This document shows, piece after piece, positions 3,228-53,189 of a stretch of 64,000 nt of DNA. How positions within the stretch are numbered: the stretch's first letter is position 1; every line of letters begins with the position of its first letter. Below the pieces are notes generated by a model that had not been told where the DNA came from, made no database searches, and saw nothing but the letters and a program-made list of their open reading frames with translations. Source of the stretch: a virus; the IMG/VR virus record IMGVR_UViG_3300028840_006907, positions 96,001 to 160,000 of that record; one strand, given 5' to 3'. Both the position numbers and the translations under genes were made by a program.

Positions 3228-3728
3228 TTATAAAAAAGTTTTATACGTTTTTTTATTAATGATATATGATAATGTTGATTTTGCTGATTTATATTCCTTT
3301 GCTAATTTATTTAAACTTTCTCCATTTTTATTTCTGTTAATTATAGATTCTATCTCTTTTTTTGTGAATTTTCTTAATTTATACGCAGCTTTAACTGCTT
3401 GCTCTTTTCTTTCTTTTTCAGGTATATCAAATGAATTCTCTGATCTTGTACCAATTGATATATTAGAATCATTGAAATTTAATCTATTTCTATCTAAGTG
3501 TCTAGTCTCAATCCCTTCTTCAAAAACTTTATCCCCAAATAAAAAGTATGCTTTTAATTTATGTACTTTTAAATTTTTAATCTTTTTGTTTACATAGATA
3601 TTTATGGTAGGGTAACCTTTTGAATAATGGAATCTTAAAGGTTTTCCCATTGGCCCAATAACTTCATTTTTATCATTAAAATGATATCCTTTTTTTACAG
3701 CTATTTTTAAGACATCATTATTTTTCAT
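3228..3728 (-). CDS. HNH homing endonuclease
   Basis: 166 aa; HNH_3-like motif HLDRNRLNFNDSN; abuts tRNA cluster. Confidence 0.7.
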   Translation of the reverse strand: MKNNDVLKIAVKKGYHFNDKNEVIGPMGKPLRFHYSKGYPTINIYVNKKIKNLKVHKLKAYFLFGDKVFEEGIETRHLDRNRLNFNDSNISIGTRSENSFDIPEKERKEQAVKAAYKLRKFTKKEIESIINRNKNGESLNKLAKEYKSAKSTLSYIINKKTYKTFL

Positions 3729-15797: not shown

Positions 15798-15872
15798 AAG
15801 TGGTATACACAACTTAAAGAGCGGTCCTTCATGTTAACGTAGGTAATTTTCTCTGTAAGTTGTTGATTTATA

Positions 15873-16282
15873 TGGAGGTGAGGAGAGTTGAACTCCTGTC
15901 CGCGAAGGTATCTTGAGTAAACCTCTACATGTTTAGTCTATGGTTTAAATCTTATTCATAATCACGTTCACAGACAAACTTAATTAAGAACCAGTCTCTA
16001 GTCTCATTCATTGGTCAAGACTCCTCAATGAACCAGAACCCGTTTGGCTATCCGGAATTAACAGGGTTCAGTTAAAACCGGATTTGTCGTTTTTTGTTTA
16101 AACGACGGCTTCTTCTGCTTGATGAATAGCAGCAAGGTTAAGTGCTGAAAACATCGCACAGAAGTTAACTGTATTAGTTTTTTCAGTTATTATTGAAATC
16201 GGCTTTTTTACGAGGCCAACCGATTAACCTCGACATGCAGTTTACATTTCAACTCATCACGTCGAAAACCAAGTACACCCCC
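15873..16282 (-). ncRNA. ssrA: tmRNA (transfer-messenger RNA, ssrA-like)
   Basis: Minus strand 5' GGGGGTGTACTTGGTTTTCGACG..., internal GGTTGGCCTCGTAAAAAAGCCG matching conserved tmRNA pseudoknot/resume region, 3' tRNA-like GGAGTTCAACTCTCCTCACCTCCA. Confidence 0.8.
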
Positions 16283-22683: not shown

Positions 22684-22689
22684 AAATGG

Positions 22690-22765
22690 GGGCCGGAATG
22701 TTCCAAGGGGGCGAGAATGCCTTGCAAGCAATCTGCGGTGAGTTCGATTCTCACTCGGTCCACCA
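22690..22765 (+). tRNA. tRNA-Ala-like (anticodon TGC), degenerate D-arm
   Basis: G3:U70 acceptor pair, loop CTTGCAA, 3' half close to canonical tRNA-Ala (GTTCGATTC...TCCACCA); D-arm and one anticodon-stem pair irregular. Confidence 0.45.
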
Positions 22766-22919
22766 TAAGTAAAATAACAAAATCTTTCAAAAGGAAGTAG
22801 GCTTAAGAGTAGCCACTTTAATGAGTGATGAAAGGCGATGTGCACACGAATTTCGTGGAGTAGTTATCCGAATAGTCTTTGGTGTAACAACACACCTTTT
22901 GAAAGATTATTAATATAAT

Positions 22920-31068: not shown

Positions 31069-31175
31069 GGAGAGGTAGGTTTAATTGGTAAAATCAGTGC
31101 TTTGCACAGCACCTAAGCTAGCAAGGTGCCATTCCAGGGATGGATTTCGGGGTTCAAGTCCCCGTCTCTCTGCCA
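31069..31175 (+). other. atypical 107-nt tRNA-like element (canonical acceptor, D-arm and T-arm; aberrant anticodon region)
   Basis: GGAGAGG/TCTCTCT acceptor pairing, D-arm GGTTTAATTGGTAAAATC, T-arm CGGGGTTCAAGTCCCCG, CCA; middle holds GTGCTTTGCAC hairpin and GCTAGC palindrome. Confidence 0.35.
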
Positions 31176-31459: not shown

Positions 31460-31549
31460 GAGTAGGAGGTCAGATAGTGGTTGGCTGCACCGGACTGTAA
31501 ATCCGGATCTCGTAAAGGGACGCTGGGGGTTCGACGCCCTCCCTACTCA
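31460..31549 (+). tRNA. tRNA-Tyr (anticodon GTA), type II
   Basis: Hand fold: acceptor GAGTAGG/CCTACTC, loop CTGTAAA, long variable arm. Confidence 0.8.
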
Positions 31550-31563
31550 TTTGTCAATTTTAT

Positions 31564-31649
31564 GGAGAGCAACCGAATGGTTAGGAGGCGGTTTCGAAAA
31601 CCGTTAAGGCTGAAAGGCTAACTAAGTTCGATTCTTAGGCTCTCCGCCA
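31564..31649 (+). tRNA. tRNA-Ser (anticodon CGA), type II
   Basis: Hand fold: acceptor GGAGAGC/GCTCTCC, loop TTCGAAA, CCA. Confidence 0.8.
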
Positions 31650-36749: not shown

Positions 36750-36833
36750 GATCGGGTGGAGGAATTGGGATACTCAGCAAATTTAAGCTTTGCTGTCCTT
36801 TGTGACATGCGGGTTCGATTCCCGCCCCGATTA
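36750..36833 (+). tRNA. tRNA-Leu (anticodon TAA), type II
   Basis: Hand fold: acceptor GATCGGG/CCCGATT, loop TTTAAGC, long variable arm. Confidence 0.8.
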
Positions 36834-36846
36834 TTATATAATAATT

Positions 36847-37323
36847 ATGGTTTACAAAAATTGTAGAACATACGGCCCTTATGAAGGTAAAGATGGTAGA
36901 CTAAGAGTATGTGTAGTTTACCCTGATTTGAGTAAAAGAACAGTATCATATCCTAAATATCTTATGGAGAAACATTTGAATAGATATTTAGAAAAGAATG
37001 AAACAATAGATCATAAAGATGAAAATCCTTTAAATAATAAATTAAGTAATTTGAATATTCTTATTAAAGGTGATCATTGCCGTAAACATGCTAAGAGATT
37101 GTTACCTAGAAGTTTTAGCTGCCCTCAATGTAAGAAACCGTTTGTTTTATCAGGACGAAGATTACATGATGCTATACAAAACAGAAAAAGAGGTAAAGTG
37201 GGTCCTTTTTGTAATAAAAGATGTGGGGGAATATACGGAACAGATGTTCAAAATAAAAGAATAGAAGTTTTAGATGTGATTCAAATACCTGTTGAATATG
37301 AGCCTAAAATAAAAGAGATATAG
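36847..37323 (+). CDS. HNH homing endonuclease
   Basis: Trimmed to ATG after tRNA-Leu; IDHKDENPLNNKLSNL HNH_3-like motif. Confidence 0.7.
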   Translation: MVYKNCRTYGPYEGKDGRLRVCVVYPDLSKRTVSYPKYLMEKHLNRYLEKNETIDHKDENPLNNKLSNLNILIKGDHCRKHAKRLLPRSFSCPQCKKPFVLSGRRLHDAIQNRKRGKVGPFCNKRCGGIYGTDVQNKRIEVLDVIQIPVEYEPKIKEI

Positions 37324-39640: not shown

Positions 39641-40192
39641 ATGAACAACTATAAGACATTAGTATTAGCAGGTGGAGTACCTATTGACGTGGAAAGCTGG
39701 CAAAAATCATTAACAAAATGTATATCGGGAAAGGCCATAGCAATCAAGAATAGGAAAGAAATTGCCTTTGAGACTAATGGAGTAGTTACATACATACCTT
39801 CGATCATTGTAATCTTAAATACCTATTTTATGGGTAGATTAAGGTTTGTAAATACGGTTCCTCTTAATAGGCGTAATTTGTGGCTTAGGGATAAAGGTCA
39901 TTGTATGTATTGTAATAGTAAAATAACGACAGAAGAAGTGACTTTTGATCATGTCATTCCTCAAAGTAAAGGCGGTAAAACAACTTGGACGAACGTTGTC
40001 TGCTCGTGTTCTATTTGTAATAATAAAAAAGACAATAGAACTCCAAAACAGGCTAGGATGACTTTGGTAAAAGCACCAACGGTTCCTAAACTTAGTAAAA
40101 AGGTTGTCCAAAGAATGATAAAAAAGTTGGGAACTATTTCTATTAATGAGGATTCTTGGAAAGGTTATTGGGACGTGACTTTATTGTCGTAA
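39641..40192 (+). CDS. HNH endonuclease
   Basis: 183 aa; CMYCNSKIT...FDHVIPQSKGG...CSCSICNNKK. Confidence 0.7.
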   Translation: MNNYKTLVLAGGVPIDVESWQKSLTKCISGKAIAIKNRKEIAFETNGVVTYIPSIIVILNTYFMGRLRFVNTVPLNRRNLWLRDKGHCMYCNSKITTEEVTFDHVIPQSKGGKTTWTNVVCSCSICNNKKDNRTPKQARMTLVKAPTVPKLSKKVVQRMIKKLGTISINEDSWKGYWDVTLLS

Positions 40193-42915: not shown

Positions 42916-43277
42916 TTTTTACTGTAACCTTTTTTACGTTTATATTCTACTCTTGTTAACCATCCACTAAAAGAAATTAATGCTCTTCTTTTTAATCTGG
43001 GCTTTGAATAAAAGCGTGATTTATAGTGCTTCCTTTGAAATGATAACTTTCTTCTGAGTTTGATTAATTCAGGATCAATCGGTTTTAAATGATACTCTTC
43101 TTGTTTTTCAGGTTCAGGCTCTCCCGTAAAAGTACCCATGGCAACTGGAGTCCTACCTACAAAAACAATAGTACAAGTCCATGTGCAATTAGCACAACAA
43201 GTAGAAGTTAATCCCCATCCTTGAGGGCATTGATTATAATAAGTTCCTCCAGTGCCTGTGCAAGAGATATCTATCAT
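42912..43277 (-). CDS. Cys-rich hypothetical protein
   Basis: 121 aa; CPQGWGLTSTCCANCTWTC. Confidence 0.4.
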   Translation of the reverse strand: MIDISCTGTGGTYYNQCPQGWGLTSTCCANCTWTCTIVFVGRTPVAMGTFTGEPEPEKQEEYHLKPIDPELIKLRRKLSFQRKHYKSRFYSKPRLKRRALISFSGWLTRVEYKRKKGYSKK

Positions 43278-44089
43278 TTGTCAGGTATCTCCTGGAATTT
43301 GTTACTGTATTTCCATTTAAATCCACCACCTGTTCTATTTGTAAAAAATTTTTTTCCAGACGGATCATTTCTATTCCTATCTTTTCGGTTCCTGGCTACT
43401 GCTGTTATTTTAGACTTATCTACACCTGTTACAAAAGAAGCTTCTTTAATACTGCTGTATGTGCATATTAAGTTTACTCCCTTTTTATCCCATTGTTCTA
43501 CAGGTCTTTCAAATTTTTTGCACCATTGTTCTTTGGTTATTATTTCAAGGTTGTCTAATGCATATGGTTTATTTGTATCAATTCGGGTTATATATGGTGT
43601 TAAACCTTTATTTTGTTTATCTTGTACCCATATCCGAAACATTTTGAAAAATTTATATTGATCGGAGATCCATCCTAAAAACTCATCGAATGAATAAGAA
43701 AGATCTTCTCCTTTTTTTCTTGAAAGTGCCTTATGACGATTGTAAACTTTATTTAGAAAATCATTAACATAATTGAGCCTTTTTTTCTTCCAAATTTTAT
43801 GACAGTCTTTGCATATGTTGAAATTTTTACGAGCTTTATTTTTATCAGTTAATTCAACTCTACATTTACAACATACTTTTTGGTTATCATGTTCATAATT
43901 TTCTGCATATTTCCAGATGTAACCTCCACAACTTTTAGATTTACCAACAACACAATTATTTATAGTTTGTCGATGTAATTTATTCTTTCTTGCAGCCATG
44001 GATATTGAAGGGTAAGTCTTTATGGCTCTACCGGTTTCCATTGAATATTTTGTAACTGCTCTCCATCGAGTCTTTGGTATATTAATCAT
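43274..44089 (-). CDS. homing-endonuclease-like DNA-binding protein (NUMOD/HTH-like modules)
   Basis: 271 aa; repeated SI..AAR.. and YSSIKEASFVTGV segments like homing-endonuclease DNA-binding modules; no clear catalytic motif seen. Confidence 0.4.
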   Translation of the reverse strand: MINIPKTRWRAVTKYSMETGRAIKTYPSISMAARKNKLHRQTINNCVVGKSKSCGGYIWKYAENYEHDNQKVCCKCRVELTDKNKARKNFNICKDCHKIWKKKRLNYVNDFLNKVYNRHKALSRKKGEDLSYSFDEFLGWISDQYKFFKMFRIWVQDKQNKGLTPYITRIDTNKPYALDNLEIITKEQWCKKFERPVEQWDKKGVNLICTYSSIKEASFVTGVDKSKITAVARNRKDRNRNDPSGKKFFTNRTGGGFKWKYSNKFQEIPDK

Positions 44090-46401: not shown

Positions 46402-47571
46402 TTATCCAAAATTAGACTTTCGGGTCAGAGGTATCTTTTTTGCAGTATCCGCAAATAGTTTTAACCCTTTCCATGAATCAATGTGGTAGGAAGTAATATA
46501 AGGTGCCTTAGGAGGTGGGCAACCACAATGCCCGTTAACTCTAACTGATCTTTTACCCTCTTTATTGGCATACATCTCCTTAGCATCTTTTAAAGGCATA
46601 TTCCCATCGACCATCCAGTAAGTCCATGCTCTTTCAAAGGTGAAACCCGGGAGTTCTCCAGAGATAGAGAAAGGAACTTCTCCGTCACCTTTTTTAGATA
46701 CAATATCAATACCGGCTAGATCAAGTTCAAGTCTGATGTAATGATCACAAGCTACCTCTCCAGCAAGATTCCCCATTGTATAACTTTCTCCATTATTGGC
46801 TAGATGCGTTTCGCATTTCTTTTTGATTTTTTTCTGATAACATTCTTCGTGGAAATATTTCCATTTTTCATAAAGAACTTCATCATTTTCTTCAATGACA
46901 TAATTTTCATCTATATTTTTTCTGCCATTTTTGTTTTTCTCATAACCATATTCTTTATCAATAGTCAGGTCAATGAGCCCCCTATTGAAAATAGTATGAT
47001 GAAATATATAGACAGTATTTTTGTCTGTGTTTCGAAGCTCTTTTTCAATTTCTGTTAAAGTTTTCCCGACGTATTTGGAGTTTATCTCAAATTGGTTAGA
47101 GTACCGTAATCTTTTGGTTTTATGGCAATACTCTACTTCCCATCCTTTATTACAGTGGGAACATTTTACATAAGCGGGAGGTAAATCATTGCCCATTGAG
47201 AATGAGATACTTATAGGATACGGCCTTTTGTTTTTTGCCCAATCAAAATCTTCTGCATCCATCTCTTCTCGGGTTAATATATTAGGGATATTTTCTTTAC
47301 TCCATCTTTCAATAAAATCCCAAAATTCTGTCTTTGTAAAAACTTTTCCTACAGGAAAATTGAAAATTTTCTCTACCGGAATAAAACCTGTCGCAGTACC
47401 TAAATTACCACACGTATCGAGATAATATCGACCTAAGACATAATATTCGTATAGTCTTTCATCACGTTTGTAACCTGCTTCGTGTCTTTCATTGATCATT
47501 TCCCAAAATGTGTTGTAAGATTTAAGTGACTTTTCGATTCCTTTAATTGTGTTATAGTCTTGTTTTTTCAT
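46402..47571 (-). CDS. hypothetical protein
   Basis: 389 aa ORF, no motif recognised. Confidence 0.5.
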   Translation of the reverse strand: MKKQDYNTIKGIEKSLKSYNTFWEMINERHEAGYKRDERLYEYYVLGRYYLDTCGNLGTATGFIPVEKIFNFPVGKVFTKTEFWDFIERWSKENIPNILTREEMDAEDFDWAKNKRPYPISISFSMGNDLPPAYVKCSHCNKGWEVEYCHKTKRLRYSNQFEINSKYVGKTLTEIEKELRNTDKNTVYIFHHTIFNRGLIDLTIDKEYGYEKNKNGRKNIDENYVIEENDEVLYEKWKYFHEECYQKKIKKKCETHLANNGESYTMGNLAGEVACDHYIRLELDLAGIDIVSKKGDGEVPFSISGELPGFTFERAWTYWMVDGNMPLKDAKEMYANKEGKRSVRVNGHCGCPPPKAPYITSYHIDSWKGLKLFADTAKKIPLTRKSNFG

Positions 47572-48599
47572 TTTACCACATGTTTAGAAGTGATTGTTTC
47601 TGCGAATTCTGGCCCCCTATCATAGTCATCAATCCATATGTTATCACAGTGCCGATTTCCTTTTTTCTCACTGCCGTACCATTGTGTCCTCCAATGTGCC
47701 TCAACTCTTATCTTATGATCCAGTTTCCATTTTCCGACACCTCCAGCTTGTTTGATACGAGTTATATCGTTATTCTTATCCTTTATATTTGAACCAACAA
47801 TAATAAATCTTTTGTTGGTAGCTTTTTCTTTCCTTTGTTCCAGTTTTCTTTTCTTGGTTTTATTTTTAATATTTTTTAATCTTGCATCAAAATCTAGTGG
47901 ATCATGGTTTTTTAAATCAGGTTTTTTGCTTGTGATATATAAAAGAGTGTTAAATACAAATTTTGCGAATTCTTCTAAATGATCAACATTTTTATATAAA
48001 TCATATTTATCTACTTCTTCCTTTTTTCTTTTTGTCTCATTTTCAATATAAATCTTTAATTGATCCTGAATTTTTCCAGGTTGCATTTCTATGTGGAAAT
48101 AAAAGGTGGTATCATTAAATGGTATGTCTGGTGTAGGTTTTAATAATGAACATGCCATTACTCTAATATGCTTTTCAGTATTGAAATCTCGAAGATAAAC
48201 GTAAAAACCATTTACAGGATGTTTACTTCCATCTATATCATTTATAGAAAAAAGACCTGGATCTATCTGTATAAAAATTTCTCTAAACGGGGATCTTAAG
48301 AAATAAGCATCAGTATTACAATTTGTTTGGGCTAGTCTTGCTGAAAGTTCTGGTGTTATATAGTATATCTGATCAGCATTATTTTTCATTTGATACATAT
48401 GAAAATATGTATTGTAAAAATGACTTATTCTTGCTGGTGAATCAAATTCAGTAAAAATAGAAGAAGTAGCATTACAAAATTGTTTGAATGTAGGATCAAA
48501 ACCAATATCGAGCATATTTTGTACTAGTATAGTTGGGGCTACTGTCTCTAGATGTTTAATAGCCAGTTCATAATGAGTTTTTGTGAAATACTTCTCCAT
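47568..48599 (-). CDS. hypothetical protein
   Basis: 343 aa ORF. Confidence 0.5.
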   Translation of the reverse strand: MEKYFTKTHYELAIKHLETVAPTILVQNMLDIGFDPTFKQFCNATSSIFTEFDSPARISHFYNTYFHMYQMKNNADQIYYITPELSARLAQTNCNTDAYFLRSPFREIFIQIDPGLFSINDIDGSKHPVNGFYVYLRDFNTEKHIRVMACSLLKPTPDIPFNDTTFYFHIEMQPGKIQDQLKIYIENETKRKKEEVDKYDLYKNVDHLEEFAKFVFNTLLYITSKKPDLKNHDPLDFDARLKNIKNKTKKRKLEQRKEKATNKRFIIVGSNIKDKNNDITRIKQAGGVGKWKLDHKIRVEAHWRTQWYGSEKKGNRHCDNIWIDDYDRGPEFAETITSKHVVK

Positions 48600-50371: not shown

Positions 50372-50926
50372 ATGAGACCCATGATATATCCTAAAAAGAA
50401 TAGGAAAATAAAAAGACCACGAAGATCGAGACCATTAAAAAGATGTGTTCATATTGATGGAAAAGAATGGAGGTGGGAAACAACAGGTCACTGGGATAGT
50501 GATGCAGGTAGTTATGGTTGTTTAACTGATCAGAGCGTTAAAATACTTTCTCCTGATAATAAATTTTTTTCTATACGTGCTCATGAAGTAATGAAATGTG
50601 AACCGATAAGATGGGAATGTTGTGTTGGTGAAAAATTAATAACAGTTTTACCGGGGAAAGTAAAACAGTATATAATAGATAATTTAATTGATCATGATAT
50701 TTCAAGATCGTTAAGGAGACGCATTCATATAGATGGTAGAGAATGGGGTTGGCAGTTTAGTAAAGGAAATCCTGCATATCAGCTCTGTGGAGTATCTGTC
50801 CGTTCTCCTGATAATCGGTATTTATGGATTTATGCAAAAGAGTTAGGATACGAGATTAAACCATCAGTAATTAAAAAGTATATAATTGATAATTTATTAT
50901 ATCGGGGTATAGCGCAGCCTGGTTAG
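50372..50926 (+). CDS. hypothetical protein with internal duplicated ~75-aa module
   Basis: 184 aa; repeats HIDG(K/R)EW(R/G)W...SPDN(K/R)...YIIDNL; 3' end overlaps tRNA-Pro. Confidence 0.45.
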   Translation: MRPMIYPKKNRKIKRPRRSRPLKRCVHIDGKEWRWETTGHWDSDAGSYGCLTDQSVKILSPDNKFFSIRAHEVMKCEPIRWECCVGEKLITVLPGKVKQYIIDNLIDHDISRSLRRRIHIDGREWGWQFSKGNPAYQLCGVSVRSPDNRYLWIYAKELGYEIKPSVIKKYIIDNLLYRGIAQPG

Positions 50927-50979
50927 CGCGTCTGAATGGGGTTCAGAAGGTCGCCAGTTCAACTCTGGCTACCCCGACC
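50902..50979 (+). tRNA. tRNA-Pro (anticodon GGG)
   Basis: C1:G72 acceptor CGGGGTA/TACCCCG, loop ATGGGGT, CCA. Confidence 0.8.
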
Positions 50980-50998
50980 AAAGTTCTTTGAAAATTAT

Positions 50999-51274
50999 GG
51001 GGGTGTGGCAGAAGGGATATGCAGTCCTCAAAAAGTAGACAGGTCTGGGTAAAACCGGGTCATTACAGGAAGTTTGTATTCGCTACTGAAACGAAACAAA
51101 GGGAAGGTAGTGTAACGCTTACGGACTGGTGCTTGCAAGGGTTTACGGAAGACACTGACACGTTGCCTGGGATCTGGAGACAGCCCAGGAGGGTTTGTAA
51201 ATAACGGCAGGAAGTCCTTTTTCCCAATAGTGAGCTTTGGATGACTTATGCCGGTTCGAATCCGGTCACCTCCA
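50999..51274 (+). other. tRNA-like ends (acceptor GGGGGTG/CACCTCC, T-arm GCCGGTTCGAATCCGGT) enclosing ~200-nt GC-rich insert; unresolved structured RNA or intron-containing tRNA
   Basis: Acceptor complementarity and canonical T-arm at 3' end; no normal anticodon arm found by hand; GC content far above surroundings. Confidence 0.4.
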
Positions 51275-51360
51275 TCAAAATAAATTAAATAGATAGATAG
51301 GCAAACTGGCAAGCCATTTGGTTGTAATAGAAAATGTGTAGCAAGATCATAAAGACATAC

Positions 51361-51632
51361 TGGAGTGTAGCTCAGTGGCAGAGCGGGTGGCTGTCTTGGT
51401 TGGCAGCTCTTATAGGAAACTGTAAGATGAAAACTCGGTGAATTCAGGGAAACCTAAGTCTTAAACAGATATGGCAATCCTGAGCGAAGCCTTGAGAAAG
51501 GAACGTGCAGAGACTTATAGCGCCGAGCACCTAAGGTGAAAACTATGGTGATGAGATAGTCCAGGCCCTTGGGAAATCAGGGGAATTACTGTAACCACTT
51601 GGTCGGGGGTTCAAATCCCTCCACTCCAGCCA
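51361..51632 (+). tRNA. tRNA-Asn (anticodon GTT) interrupted by a group I intron
   Basis: Exon 1 51361-51394 (TGGAGTG...GGTGG-CTGT), exon 2 51592-51632 (TAA-CCACT...CACTCCAGCCA); spliced loop CTGTTAA; U1:A72 as in bacterial tRNA-Asn. Confidence 0.7.
51395..51591 (+). ncRNA. group I intron (~197 nt) in tRNA-Asn anticodon loop
   Basis: 5' exon ends in U; IGS GGCAG pairs with exon CUGU; R-like GCAGAGACTTATAGCG and S-like GAGATAGTCC elements; terminal G before exon 2. Confidence 0.65.
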
Positions 51633-51683
51633 ATTTTAAAGGGTCCTAGAGGAATTTACTTTAAAGAAAAGGAGAAAAATTAA

Positions 51684-51884
51684 ATGAGTAAAGATGAGAA
51701 ACCTGATTATTCGAAAGATTTCGATACATGTCCTTGGTGTAATAAAATACCAAAAGTATCGAAACATTTCAGATATGATGAATGGCAACTGATCCATCGT
51801 TGTGATAAATTACTTACTGTAATTAGTATGGATTGGACTGAATTAGATAGTCTTAAAAATCGATGGAATCGACCTAAGAAATGA
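51684..51884 (+). CDS. hypothetical protein
   Basis: 66 aa ORF; CPWCNK. Confidence 0.4.
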   Translation: MSKDEKPDYSKDFDTCPWCNKIPKVSKHFRYDEWQLIHRCDKLLTVISMDWTELDSLKNRWNRPKK

Positions 51885-52156
51885 CAGAATGTACTATATG
51901 TGAAAGAGAAACTCCTGAGAAATATGTGGAGAAACATCACTTGACTCCTTGTAGCCGAGGAGGAAAGGATAAGGAGAAAACACTTACTTGTATTGATTGC
52001 GGAGATCAGGTACATCGATTATTTACGAATAAAGAATTGGAGAGAGACTATTATACACTCGAAAAATTATTAGCTCATCCTAAAATCCAGAAATGGAAGA
52101 AATGGGTTAAGAATAAGAGATTCGGGATATGTATGAAACGAAAAAAGAAGAGATAA
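51881..52156 (+). CDS. small HNH-type endonuclease-like protein
   Basis: 91 aa; CTICE...EKHHLTPCSRGG...CIDCGDQVH. Confidence 0.5.
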   Translation: MTECTICERETPEKYVEKHHLTPCSRGGKDKEKTLTCIDCGDQVHRLFTNKELERDYYTLEKLLAHPKIQKWKKWVKNKRFGICMKRKKKR

Positions 52157-53115: not shown

Positions 53116-53189
53116 GCGCCTGAGGCTCTGAGGTGAGCAACTTGGACTCTAAATCCAAGTTTTTCAGGGTTCGACTCCCTACAGGCGCA
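53116..53189 (+). tRNA. suppressor tRNA (anticodon CTA, reads UAG)
   Basis: Hand fold: acceptor GCGCCTG/CAGGCGC, anticodon stem TTGGA/TCCAA, loop CTCTAAA (U33, CUA, A37), T-loop TTCGACT. Confidence 0.65.

Follow-up and report, generated by a model that had tools for sequence, protein, structure and literature searches.

Positions 50999-51274 (+) of the window (the whole 64,000-nucleotide stretch of phage DNA that was analysed) lie inside a phage tRNA cluster and hold a 276-base putative non-coding RNA gene. Judged by its sequence and that of its homologs, this element is a real, conserved and unclassified tRNA-like RNA gene that derives from a tRNA. We tentatively read its product as a tRNA-derived, alanine-accepting RNA in which a large domain would be integral, as in tmRNA, rather than a classical self-splicing intron. 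This reading is preferred because a conserved and intact tRNA top half bears the alanine identity set, because the insert is fixed and matches the tRNA-like part in its conservation, and because we found neither a canonical spliced product nor a group I signature. The genome of the phage is ∼470 kb in size, with an identical flanking protein encoded on a 469,617-bp public contig, and the locus of the element is 100% identical in an independent assembly.

The ends of the element have the make-up of a tRNA top half. As the original prediction had it, 5′ GGGGGTG is complementary to 3′ CACCTCC, giving an acceptor stem of 7 bp (50999-51005 with 51267-51273) that includes one G3:U70 pair; the canonical T arm (GCCGG-TTCGAAT-CCGGT, 51250-51266), which has a UUCRANY loop, and the discriminator A at 51274 were also described correctly. 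U8 and a D arm (51008-51022) are present as well, though absent from that description. The D arm consists of three Watson-Crick pairs and a G.A, with GG in the loop as expected for G18 and G19 of a tRNA, and A21 varies between homologs. The A at 51274 is followed by TCA, and CCA is not encoded. A contiguous 5-bp anticodon stem, a 7-nt loop, N26 and a variable region that is either 4-5 nt or long were not found in the element, whose two anticodon-stem halves are 207 nt apart. The tRNA-like parts are as follows.

50999..51005 (+): 5′ strand of the acceptor stem, GGGGGUG, pairing with 51267-51273, G3 opposite U70
51006..51022 (+): U8-G9 and D arm, GCAG/AAGGGAU/AUGC (from the sequence and ARAGORN with introns allowed)
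51023..51027 (+): AGUCC, 5′ strand of an anticodon-stem-like helix (from ARAGORN with introns allowed and folds)
51235..51249 (+): CUUUGGA (anticodon-loop-like), UGACU (3′ strand of the stem) and UAU (3-nt variable region) (from ARAGORN with introns allowed)
51250..51266 (+): T arm, GCCGG-UUCGAAU-CCGGU (matches the T-arm portion of tmRNA models)
51267..51274 (+): 3′ strand of the acceptor stem, CACCUCC, and discriminator A73 (read from the sequence)

The alanine identity set, G3:U70 within the 7-bp acceptor helix together with A73, can be read directly in the element. Its first 8 nt are the same as the 5′ end of the phage's own tmRNA, and its 3′ end UCACCUCCAU (10 nt) is the same as the 3′ end of that tmRNA, but beyond these 8 and 10 nt the two have no sequence in common. 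The core had been described as much more GC-rich than the genome, which agrees with a GC content of 0.47-0.50 for the element vs about 0.25-0.39 in the coding flanks; the ordinary tRNAs of the window are as GC-rich as the element. The sequence GATATGCAGTCC, which had been likened to a group I S element, is indeed present at 51017-51028, but the likeness is superficial, since it comprises the 3′ part of the D arm and the following AGUCC and has no match to the group I model RF00028.

The domain between the two anticodon-stem halves is made up of the following features, for which the homolog designated L026 is introduced below.

51028..51234 (+): 207-nt inserted domain, integral or intervening, of three hairpins and linkers (boundaries from ARAGORN -i)
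51035..51066 (+): hairpin A, GUAG-ACA-GGUCUGG-GUAAAA-CCGGGUC-A-UUAC (from folds and homologs)
51072..51122 (+): hairpin B (from folds and comparison with L026)
51123..51217 (+): hairpin C, GGACU...AGUCC around CUUGC...GCAGG and a GAGA-capped hairpin (from single-sequence folds only)
51216..51225 (+): pyrimidine tract CCUUUUUCCC (read from the sequence)

The core stem of hairpin B (CGCUACU/GGUAGUG, 51081-51087 with 51106-51112) closes an 18-nt loop, GAAACGAAACAAAGGGAA (51088-51105), that is unchanged between the window and L026. The GAGA-capped hairpin within hairpin C is CCUGGG-AU-CUG-GAGA-CAG-CCCAGG (51166-51189). The pyrimidine tract has two possible partners, the invariant GGGAAGG of hairpin B and the D-loop region; the minimum free energy (MFE) fold pairs it with the D region, and its predicted pairing with hairpin B would be a pseudoknot alternative. 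In the folds, AGUC/GACU is extendable to an irregular helix of ∼13 bp (51023-51041 with 51228-51246), whose inner end is overlapped by hairpin A, and in the precursor the helix begun by the AGUCC strand may continue, irregularly, through pairing with 51231-51246. A fold constrained to be tRNA-like lies 3-4 kcal/mol above the MFE of −84 kcal/mol. The MFE of the whole molecule is unexceptional (z = −0.83). The hexamer AGTCCT occurs twice in the element, at 51023-51028 and 51213-51218.

ARAGORN identified 34 tRNAs in the window and a canonical tmRNA at 15870-16282 (−). Around the element, the tRNA cluster is arranged as follows.

50180 (+): tRNA-Gln(CUG), first in order
50280 (+): tRNA-Pro(CGG)
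50372-50926 (+): ORF with an internal duplication, between tRNA-Pro(CGG) and tRNA-Pro(GGG)
50903-50980 (+): tRNA-Pro(GGG), directly upstream of the element
51362-51640 (+): split tRNA, downstream of the element and followed by an HNH ORF at 51881-52156, tRNA-Pro(UGG) and tRNA-Gln(UUG)

The split gene at 51362-51640 (+) is a tRNA-Asn(GUU) whose interruption at position 35/36 (CUGU/...CUG/UAA) is a ∼200-nt group I intron (RF00028, 92.8 bits) similar to IC3 tRNA introns. ARAGORN miscalls it as Thr(UGU) at 33/34, and the same two-base shift has been reported for tRNA-Asn introns of Patescibacteria (PMC13011429). Four related loci (L004, L017, L018 and L023) have an intron-less tRNA-Asn at the corresponding place. 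The ORF at 50372-50926 (+) contains HIDGxEWxW ... KQYIIDNL twice, overlaps tRNA-Pro(GGG) by 24 nt and has no Pfam match. Five contigs with the ORF were examined, and in four of them (L022, L023, L025 and the window) its end coincides with the start of the following tRNA gene or falls just within it; in L024 and L026 a tRNA-like gene starts 28-30 nt past the ORF stop. Pfam scans of 40 window ORFs revealed no SmpB, RNA ligase, Tpt1 or CCA-adding enzyme near the element.

We also noted other unusual genes in the window and in its relatives. Positions 22687-22766 (+) hold an unannotated alanine-type tRNA-like gene (GGGCCGG/UCGGUCC, G3:U70, A73-CCA, loop CUUGCAA with UGC) with no recognisable D arm, on which the tRNA model is silent and only an 11-bit tmRNA-clan match to the T arm is obtained. 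Three tRNA-like genes at 31461-31547, 31563-31646 and 31069-31175 (all +) are missed by default ARAGORN; two of them are class II, Tyr(GUA)-like and Ser(CGA)-like (25-33 bits against the tRNA-Sec model), and the third is an odd tRNA of 104-107 nt (30 bits) with a 6- or 8-nt anticodon loop or an 11-nt insert. Counting the element, six tRNA-like genes of the window are missed by default ARAGORN, and five of those six by Rfam at gathering thresholds. A tRNA at 53116-53189 (+) has the anticodon CUA (an amber suppressor, labelled Pyl by ARAGORN), suggesting that the phage may read TAG as a sense codon. HNH/NUMOD-type homing-endonuclease-like ORFs (3228-3728, 36790-37323, 39641-40192, 43274-44089 and 51881-52156) are scattered among the tRNA genes, and mobile elements appear to accumulate in the tRNA clusters of the window. 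In the relatives, an AcrVA2-like gene (PF26125) is conserved as a neighbour; at the syntenic place in the window, an ORF of 343 aa (47568-48599) had no Pfam match. Type I-C cas5d, csd1 and cas7 stand beside a conserved 208-aa gene in L014 (6270-9803), L015 and L016.

A search with the ORF upstream of the element returned two short contigs that each end inside a homolog of the element. The first, L024 (ENA ERZ27256810, contig k141_3295293, 500 nt), contains the first 59 nt, with 87% identity over 60 aligned columns, and the second, L026 (JGI 3300031673, Ga0307377_10333902, 1141 nt), contains the first 111 nt (nhmmer E = 9e-16), with 81% identity over 113 columns. The insert is present in all three lineages, and its first 81 nt are conserved in L026 about as well as the tRNA-like part, while the flanking ORF of L026 is only 32% identical in protein vs the 81% of the RNA. 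The three-way alignment shows no change in G1-G3 and G7, the D stem, the loop GG, GUCCU or the apical part of hairpin A, the GUAAAA loop and apical stem of the latter being kept in both homologs. In the window and L026, the two sequences reaching that far, ACAGGAA and the hairpin B loop are identical; the loop and its adjoining stem bases sit in a run of 27 identical columns. From the window to L026, two G.U pairs of hairpin A become G-C and U-A and one pair is lost, and hairpin B has one compensatory change, from C-G to U-A. These base-pair changes are consistent with the structure but are not proof of it, since shuffle controls are non-significant with three sequences. G3 is kept in L024 and L026, both of which end before U70. 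A full-length homolog was not found in our collection scans and contig look-ups, so comparative support covers the first 111 nt, where the homologs stop, and does not extend to the 3′ 165 nt, the long helix and U70.

We noted other tRNA-like genes on L026. Two tRNAs at 175-249 and 259-332 have 8-nt anticodon loops (ARAGORN anticodons ctgg and ctta), and at about 748-1018, immediately upstream of the homolog, there is a split tRNA-like gene (ACCAGUG...CACUGGU, with a canonical D arm) whose ∼180-200-nt insert escapes both Rfam and the tRNA group I HMM described below. If the element does found a new family of RNAs, a possibility considered below, this second unrecognised split gene beside the homolog would point to elements of this kind being common among these phages.

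Our wider searches added no further copies. Neither blastn with the element nor megablast with the surrounding 10 kb matched any GenBank phage, and pattern scans of IMG/VR gave no match to both termini with a gap between them, a D-arm 22-mer, a 3′ 24-mer, a hairpin A motif or a 21-mer of the invariant loop. Scans of metagenomes and genomes with a D-arm 20-mer matched unrelated bacterial sequence only; the invariant loop pattern TGAAACGAAACAAAGGGAAGG would have suited homolog scans better than this 20-mer, and GGTCNGGGTAAAACCGG would be a further search pattern to use alongside it. IMG/VR protein searches with two window proteins returned no relatives. The element is absent from 15 relative loci that were fetched via the 244-aa and 208-aa flanking proteins, a comparison that left out L002 and L005 (the latter being the same phage). 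The closest relatives that cover the locus (L003, L004, L017, L018 and L023) have a Gln-Pro-Asn-Pro-Gln series of tRNAs without the element, and the L020 and L022 contigs end at tRNA-Pro(GGG) just upstream. Profile searches of all the sequences that we collected found no further copies of the element.

An Rfam scan at gathering thresholds, the check suggested together with the original prediction, reported no family over the element, and the group I model found the neighbouring gene. The tRNA model RF00005 (gathering score 29 bits) left the element unreported at gathering, and default ARAGORN made no call on it. In permissive E-value searches, run on 901 nt and 306 nt around the element, any tRNA match was outscored by an 11-18-bit match from the tmRNA clan; only tmRNA-family matches were sensible, and two chance-level matches were set aside. 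Among these, beta_tmRNA scored 17.7 bits (E = 9e-4), confined to the T arm and acceptor, the tmRNA_permuted model scored 17.8-20.8 bits vs a gathering score of 47, at positions 36-76 or 36-93 only, corresponding to the T arm and the 3′ acceptor strand, and the full-length tmRNA model RF00023 scored 11.2 bits vs a gathering score of 47. ARAGORN identified no tmRNA at default or 80% thresholds and at 60% gave implausible permuted calls alone. The acceptor helix with G3:U70, the T arm and the discriminator A are those of a tmRNA, but a D-loop analogue without a D stem, P2 and PK1 were not found: the element has a D stem, inspection of the folds revealed no crossing helix, and a plain hairpin (51035-51066) sits at the place of PK1.

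Of the three readings first offered, a novel tRNA-like non-coding RNA and a tRNA with an unusual intron are still in contention and are weighed below, but the permuted element found no support: the termini are in the standard order, and the permuted tmRNA model (RF04321) covers the T arm and 3′ acceptor strand alone. Other identities were also considered and rejected. The sole resemblance to RNase P RNA is AGGAAGUCC, with no Rfam match, and the Rfam model of YrlA likewise has no match on the element. A group II intron would lack the GUGYG start, and the bulge of a D5-like hairpin is on the wrong strand. A class II tRNA-Arg(CCU), reached via a junction in the GCAG repeat, has a non-canonical loop. 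SRP RNA, a BHB-type intron as the identity of the insert, and target-site duplication by a mobile element were also rejected.

The alternative that we take seriously, while on balance doubting it, is that of an intron-containing tRNA gene, in which an intervening sequence of ∼207 nt, bordering the 5′ side of an anticodon loop that is of Gln(UUG) type with one choice of junction, would be removed to yield a ∼69-nt tRNA; removal would be by self-splicing of a highly divergent or new type of intron, or by proteins, and we regard this too as plausible but doubtful. When introns are allowed, ARAGORN calls the element a tRNA-Gln(UUG) with intron (31,207), in which AGUCC and CUUUGGA-UGACU flank 51028-51234 and the stem halves AGUC/GACU adjoin the D arm and T arm. 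It had originally been stated that no anticodon arm could be folded; AGUCC/CUUUGGA/UGACU is such an arm, yet a call of this type is expected by chance. When the interior was shuffled with the acceptor, D and T arms kept, ∼54% of sequences (537-546 per 1000 in two runs) still gave a full-span intron-tRNA call, and for this reason we do not count the anticodon-arm assignment as evidence. When the D region was shuffled as well, tRNA-type calls fell to 2.5-6.4%, which makes the D arm modestly significant.

Several further observations are in line with an intron. The heptamer UUUGGAU, which overlaps CUUUGGA, also occurs in the loop region of the phage's own tRNA-Gln(UUG), a G precedes the candidate 3′ junction and a C or U the 5′ junction, and next to the element stands the tRNA-Asn gene, which has a genuine group I intron and is accompanied by an HNH gene. 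Published tRNA introns include some that are missed by RF00028 and some with C(-1). The hairpin B loop (CAAA/GGGA) is complementary to the exon ends UCCU/UUUG and could align the exons, although this complementarity was noticed post hoc. Against splicing, however, not one of 1,316 enumerated splice-junction pairs yields a canonical tRNA, and no single junction provides U(-1) and omega-G along with a canonical arm and a 7-nt loop containing U33. Omega-G is available (GAG/C) only with C(-1), U(-1) requires that omega is C or gives a 6- or 8-nt loop, and junctions with both U(-1) and omega-G produce anticodon loops of 6 or 8 nt. The Gln solution needs C(-1) and would give a spliced tRNA without N26, with a 3-nt variable loop and a C31xU39 mismatch, and with an alanine acceptor set mismatched to a Gln-type anticodon, which we counted in favour of an integral domain. 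No intron-less counterpart was found among the 76 tRNAs of the window and 21 related loci, and the insert is in all three lineages.

The group I models also argue against an intron of a known type. Besides RF00028 we used a sequence HMM that was built from 12 published bacterial tRNA group I introns (supplement of PMC13011429). Both find the neighbouring Asn intron (92.8 bits and E = 7e-33, respectively) but give no group I signal on the element, RF00028 having no match at E≤10 in the 306-nt search and the HMM scoring −2.2 bits. A P3-P9 core could not be drawn in the element, and there is no P1 guide sequence near the candidate 5′ junction. If an intron should nevertheless prove to be the true reading, it would be of a type missed by current covariance models, in which case the tRNA sets of huge phages and intron censuses would be systematically incomplete.

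We regard it as improbable that the element is a dead gene, that is a duplicated tRNA-Pro or tRNA-Gln-like gene that was broken by an insertion and has no function. Its 5′ end and T arm do resemble the tRNA-Pro(CGG) genes of the phage group, the AGTCCT repeat could be read in this way, and L003 and L004, the closest sequenced relatives at the locus, are without it. Nevertheless, the element retains 81-87% identity across three lineages with differing local contexts, while the adjacent ORF has 32% protein identity, and the invariant loop, the compensatory pair and the intact state of every tRNA top-half element all argue against decay.

A second, miniature tagging tmRNA is a very improbable reading. 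The proposed tag frame lies in hairpin B (UCG CUA CUG AAA CGA AAC AAA GGG AAG GUA GUG UAA, giving ...SLLKRNKGKVV and a stop) and ends in VV-stop, like the ARAGORN-predicted tag of the phage tmRNA (...AEEAVV and a stop); the acceptor helix and alanine identity are of the tmRNA type, and, read in this frame, the C-to-U difference of L026 is a synonymous one. However, the partner G-to-A change is non-synonymous yet restores the base pair, and in the invariant stretch the third codon positions are all unchanged between the window and L026, which indicates that the RNA, and not a peptide, is under constraint. PK1 is missing, the frame has no GCN resume codon, and the low score of the full-length tmRNA model and the silence of ARAGORN at 80% thresholds also stand against it.

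Least credible of all is a small protein-coding gene, either a 61-aa ORF at 51019-51204 (+) or a 94-aa ORF at 51028-51312 (−): both are open in the genome, but the three single-nucleotide indels in the first 111 nt between the window and L026 exclude coding, a public assembly calls no gene at the locus and the flanks are of tRNA type.

Returning to the tRNA derivative with an integral domain, its anticodon arm would be replaced or expanded, via the long irregular helix, by the conserved three-hairpin domain of ∼207 nt. The transcript would be excised from the tRNA operon by RNase P and 3′ trimming, the trimmed RNA would receive CCA, and alanyl-tRNA synthetase may charge it through the acceptor helix alone. 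It would then act in one piece and be laid out like tmRNA, the tRNA-like domain being followed by a long helix and a ring of structured elements. Its target could be the translation apparatus, where it might take part in rescuing ribosomes or serve as a competitor or decoy for Ala-tRNA or tmRNA-binding factors. A phage tmRNA-like RNA without a tag reading frame has been found to inhibit endogenous tmRNA when expressed in E. coli (PMC11915505). There are several points against an integral domain. The true D stem, the lack of a detectable PK1 and the lack of a convincing tag frame would set the predicted RNA apart from tmRNA, and a canonical tmRNA is already encoded by the phage. An intron is favoured by the 3′ segment CUUUGGAU, which looks like a real Gln anticodon loop, and by the intron in the tRNA gene that comes next.

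Giant phages carry large sets of genes for translation, and the element bears on the part that such genes play in host takeover. If the domain is integral, the element would represent a phage RNA of a new kind that targets translation and is related to tmRNA or antagonises it. That it is the founding member of a new megaphage RNA family, with a conserved ∼200-nt domain permanently attached to an alanine-chargeable tRNA top half, is possible but in our view unlikely. In such an RNA the invariant purine-rich loop GAAACGAAACAAAGGGAA could mediate a new activity, perhaps a tmRNA-independent engaging or blocking of ribosomes or tRNA-binding factors; alternatively, the new activity could be that of a self-splicing element which aligns its exons with a hairpin-loop guide.

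Among known systems, tmRNA (SsrA) resembles the element in its ends, which pair as an acceptor helix of alanine type (G3:U70, A73) and stack on a canonical T arm, in the missing contiguous anticodon arm and in the predicted long irregular helix, beyond which lies a ring of structured elements. The element is also phage-encoded among tRNA genes and, as in the tmRNA of this phage, CCA is not encoded. It differs from tmRNA in having a real D stem, in lacking PK1, PK2-4 and a recognisable resume codon or tag, and in its size (276 nt vs 413 nt for the tmRNA of the phage). A close comparison is offered by mycobacteriophage DS6A, for which a tag-less tmRNA-like RNA has been reported (PMC11915505).

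With the group I introns of tRNA genes the element shares two tRNA halves set ∼200 nt apart with GC-richer structured RNA between them, a G at the candidate 3′ junction and a location in a tRNA cluster, adjoining a genuine example. Unlike these introns it has no match to RF00028 or the HMM, no P1 guide and no P3-P9 core; a junction would have to lie at 31/32 with C(-1) and would give a non-canonical product, and no intron-less allele was found. The species 1 and 2 RNAs of phage T4 (rnaC and rnaD) are stable RNAs of unknown function that are encoded in the T4 tRNA cluster and processed like tRNAs; compared here by description only, they are about 120-140 nt in length and so much shorter than the element. 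Finally, the bacterial Y-RNA-like YrlA also has a tRNA-like module of T arm and D arm fused to another helix, but its topology is reversed: in YrlA the termini lie at the stem on the anticodon side and the acceptor end is closed, while in the element the termini form the acceptor stem.
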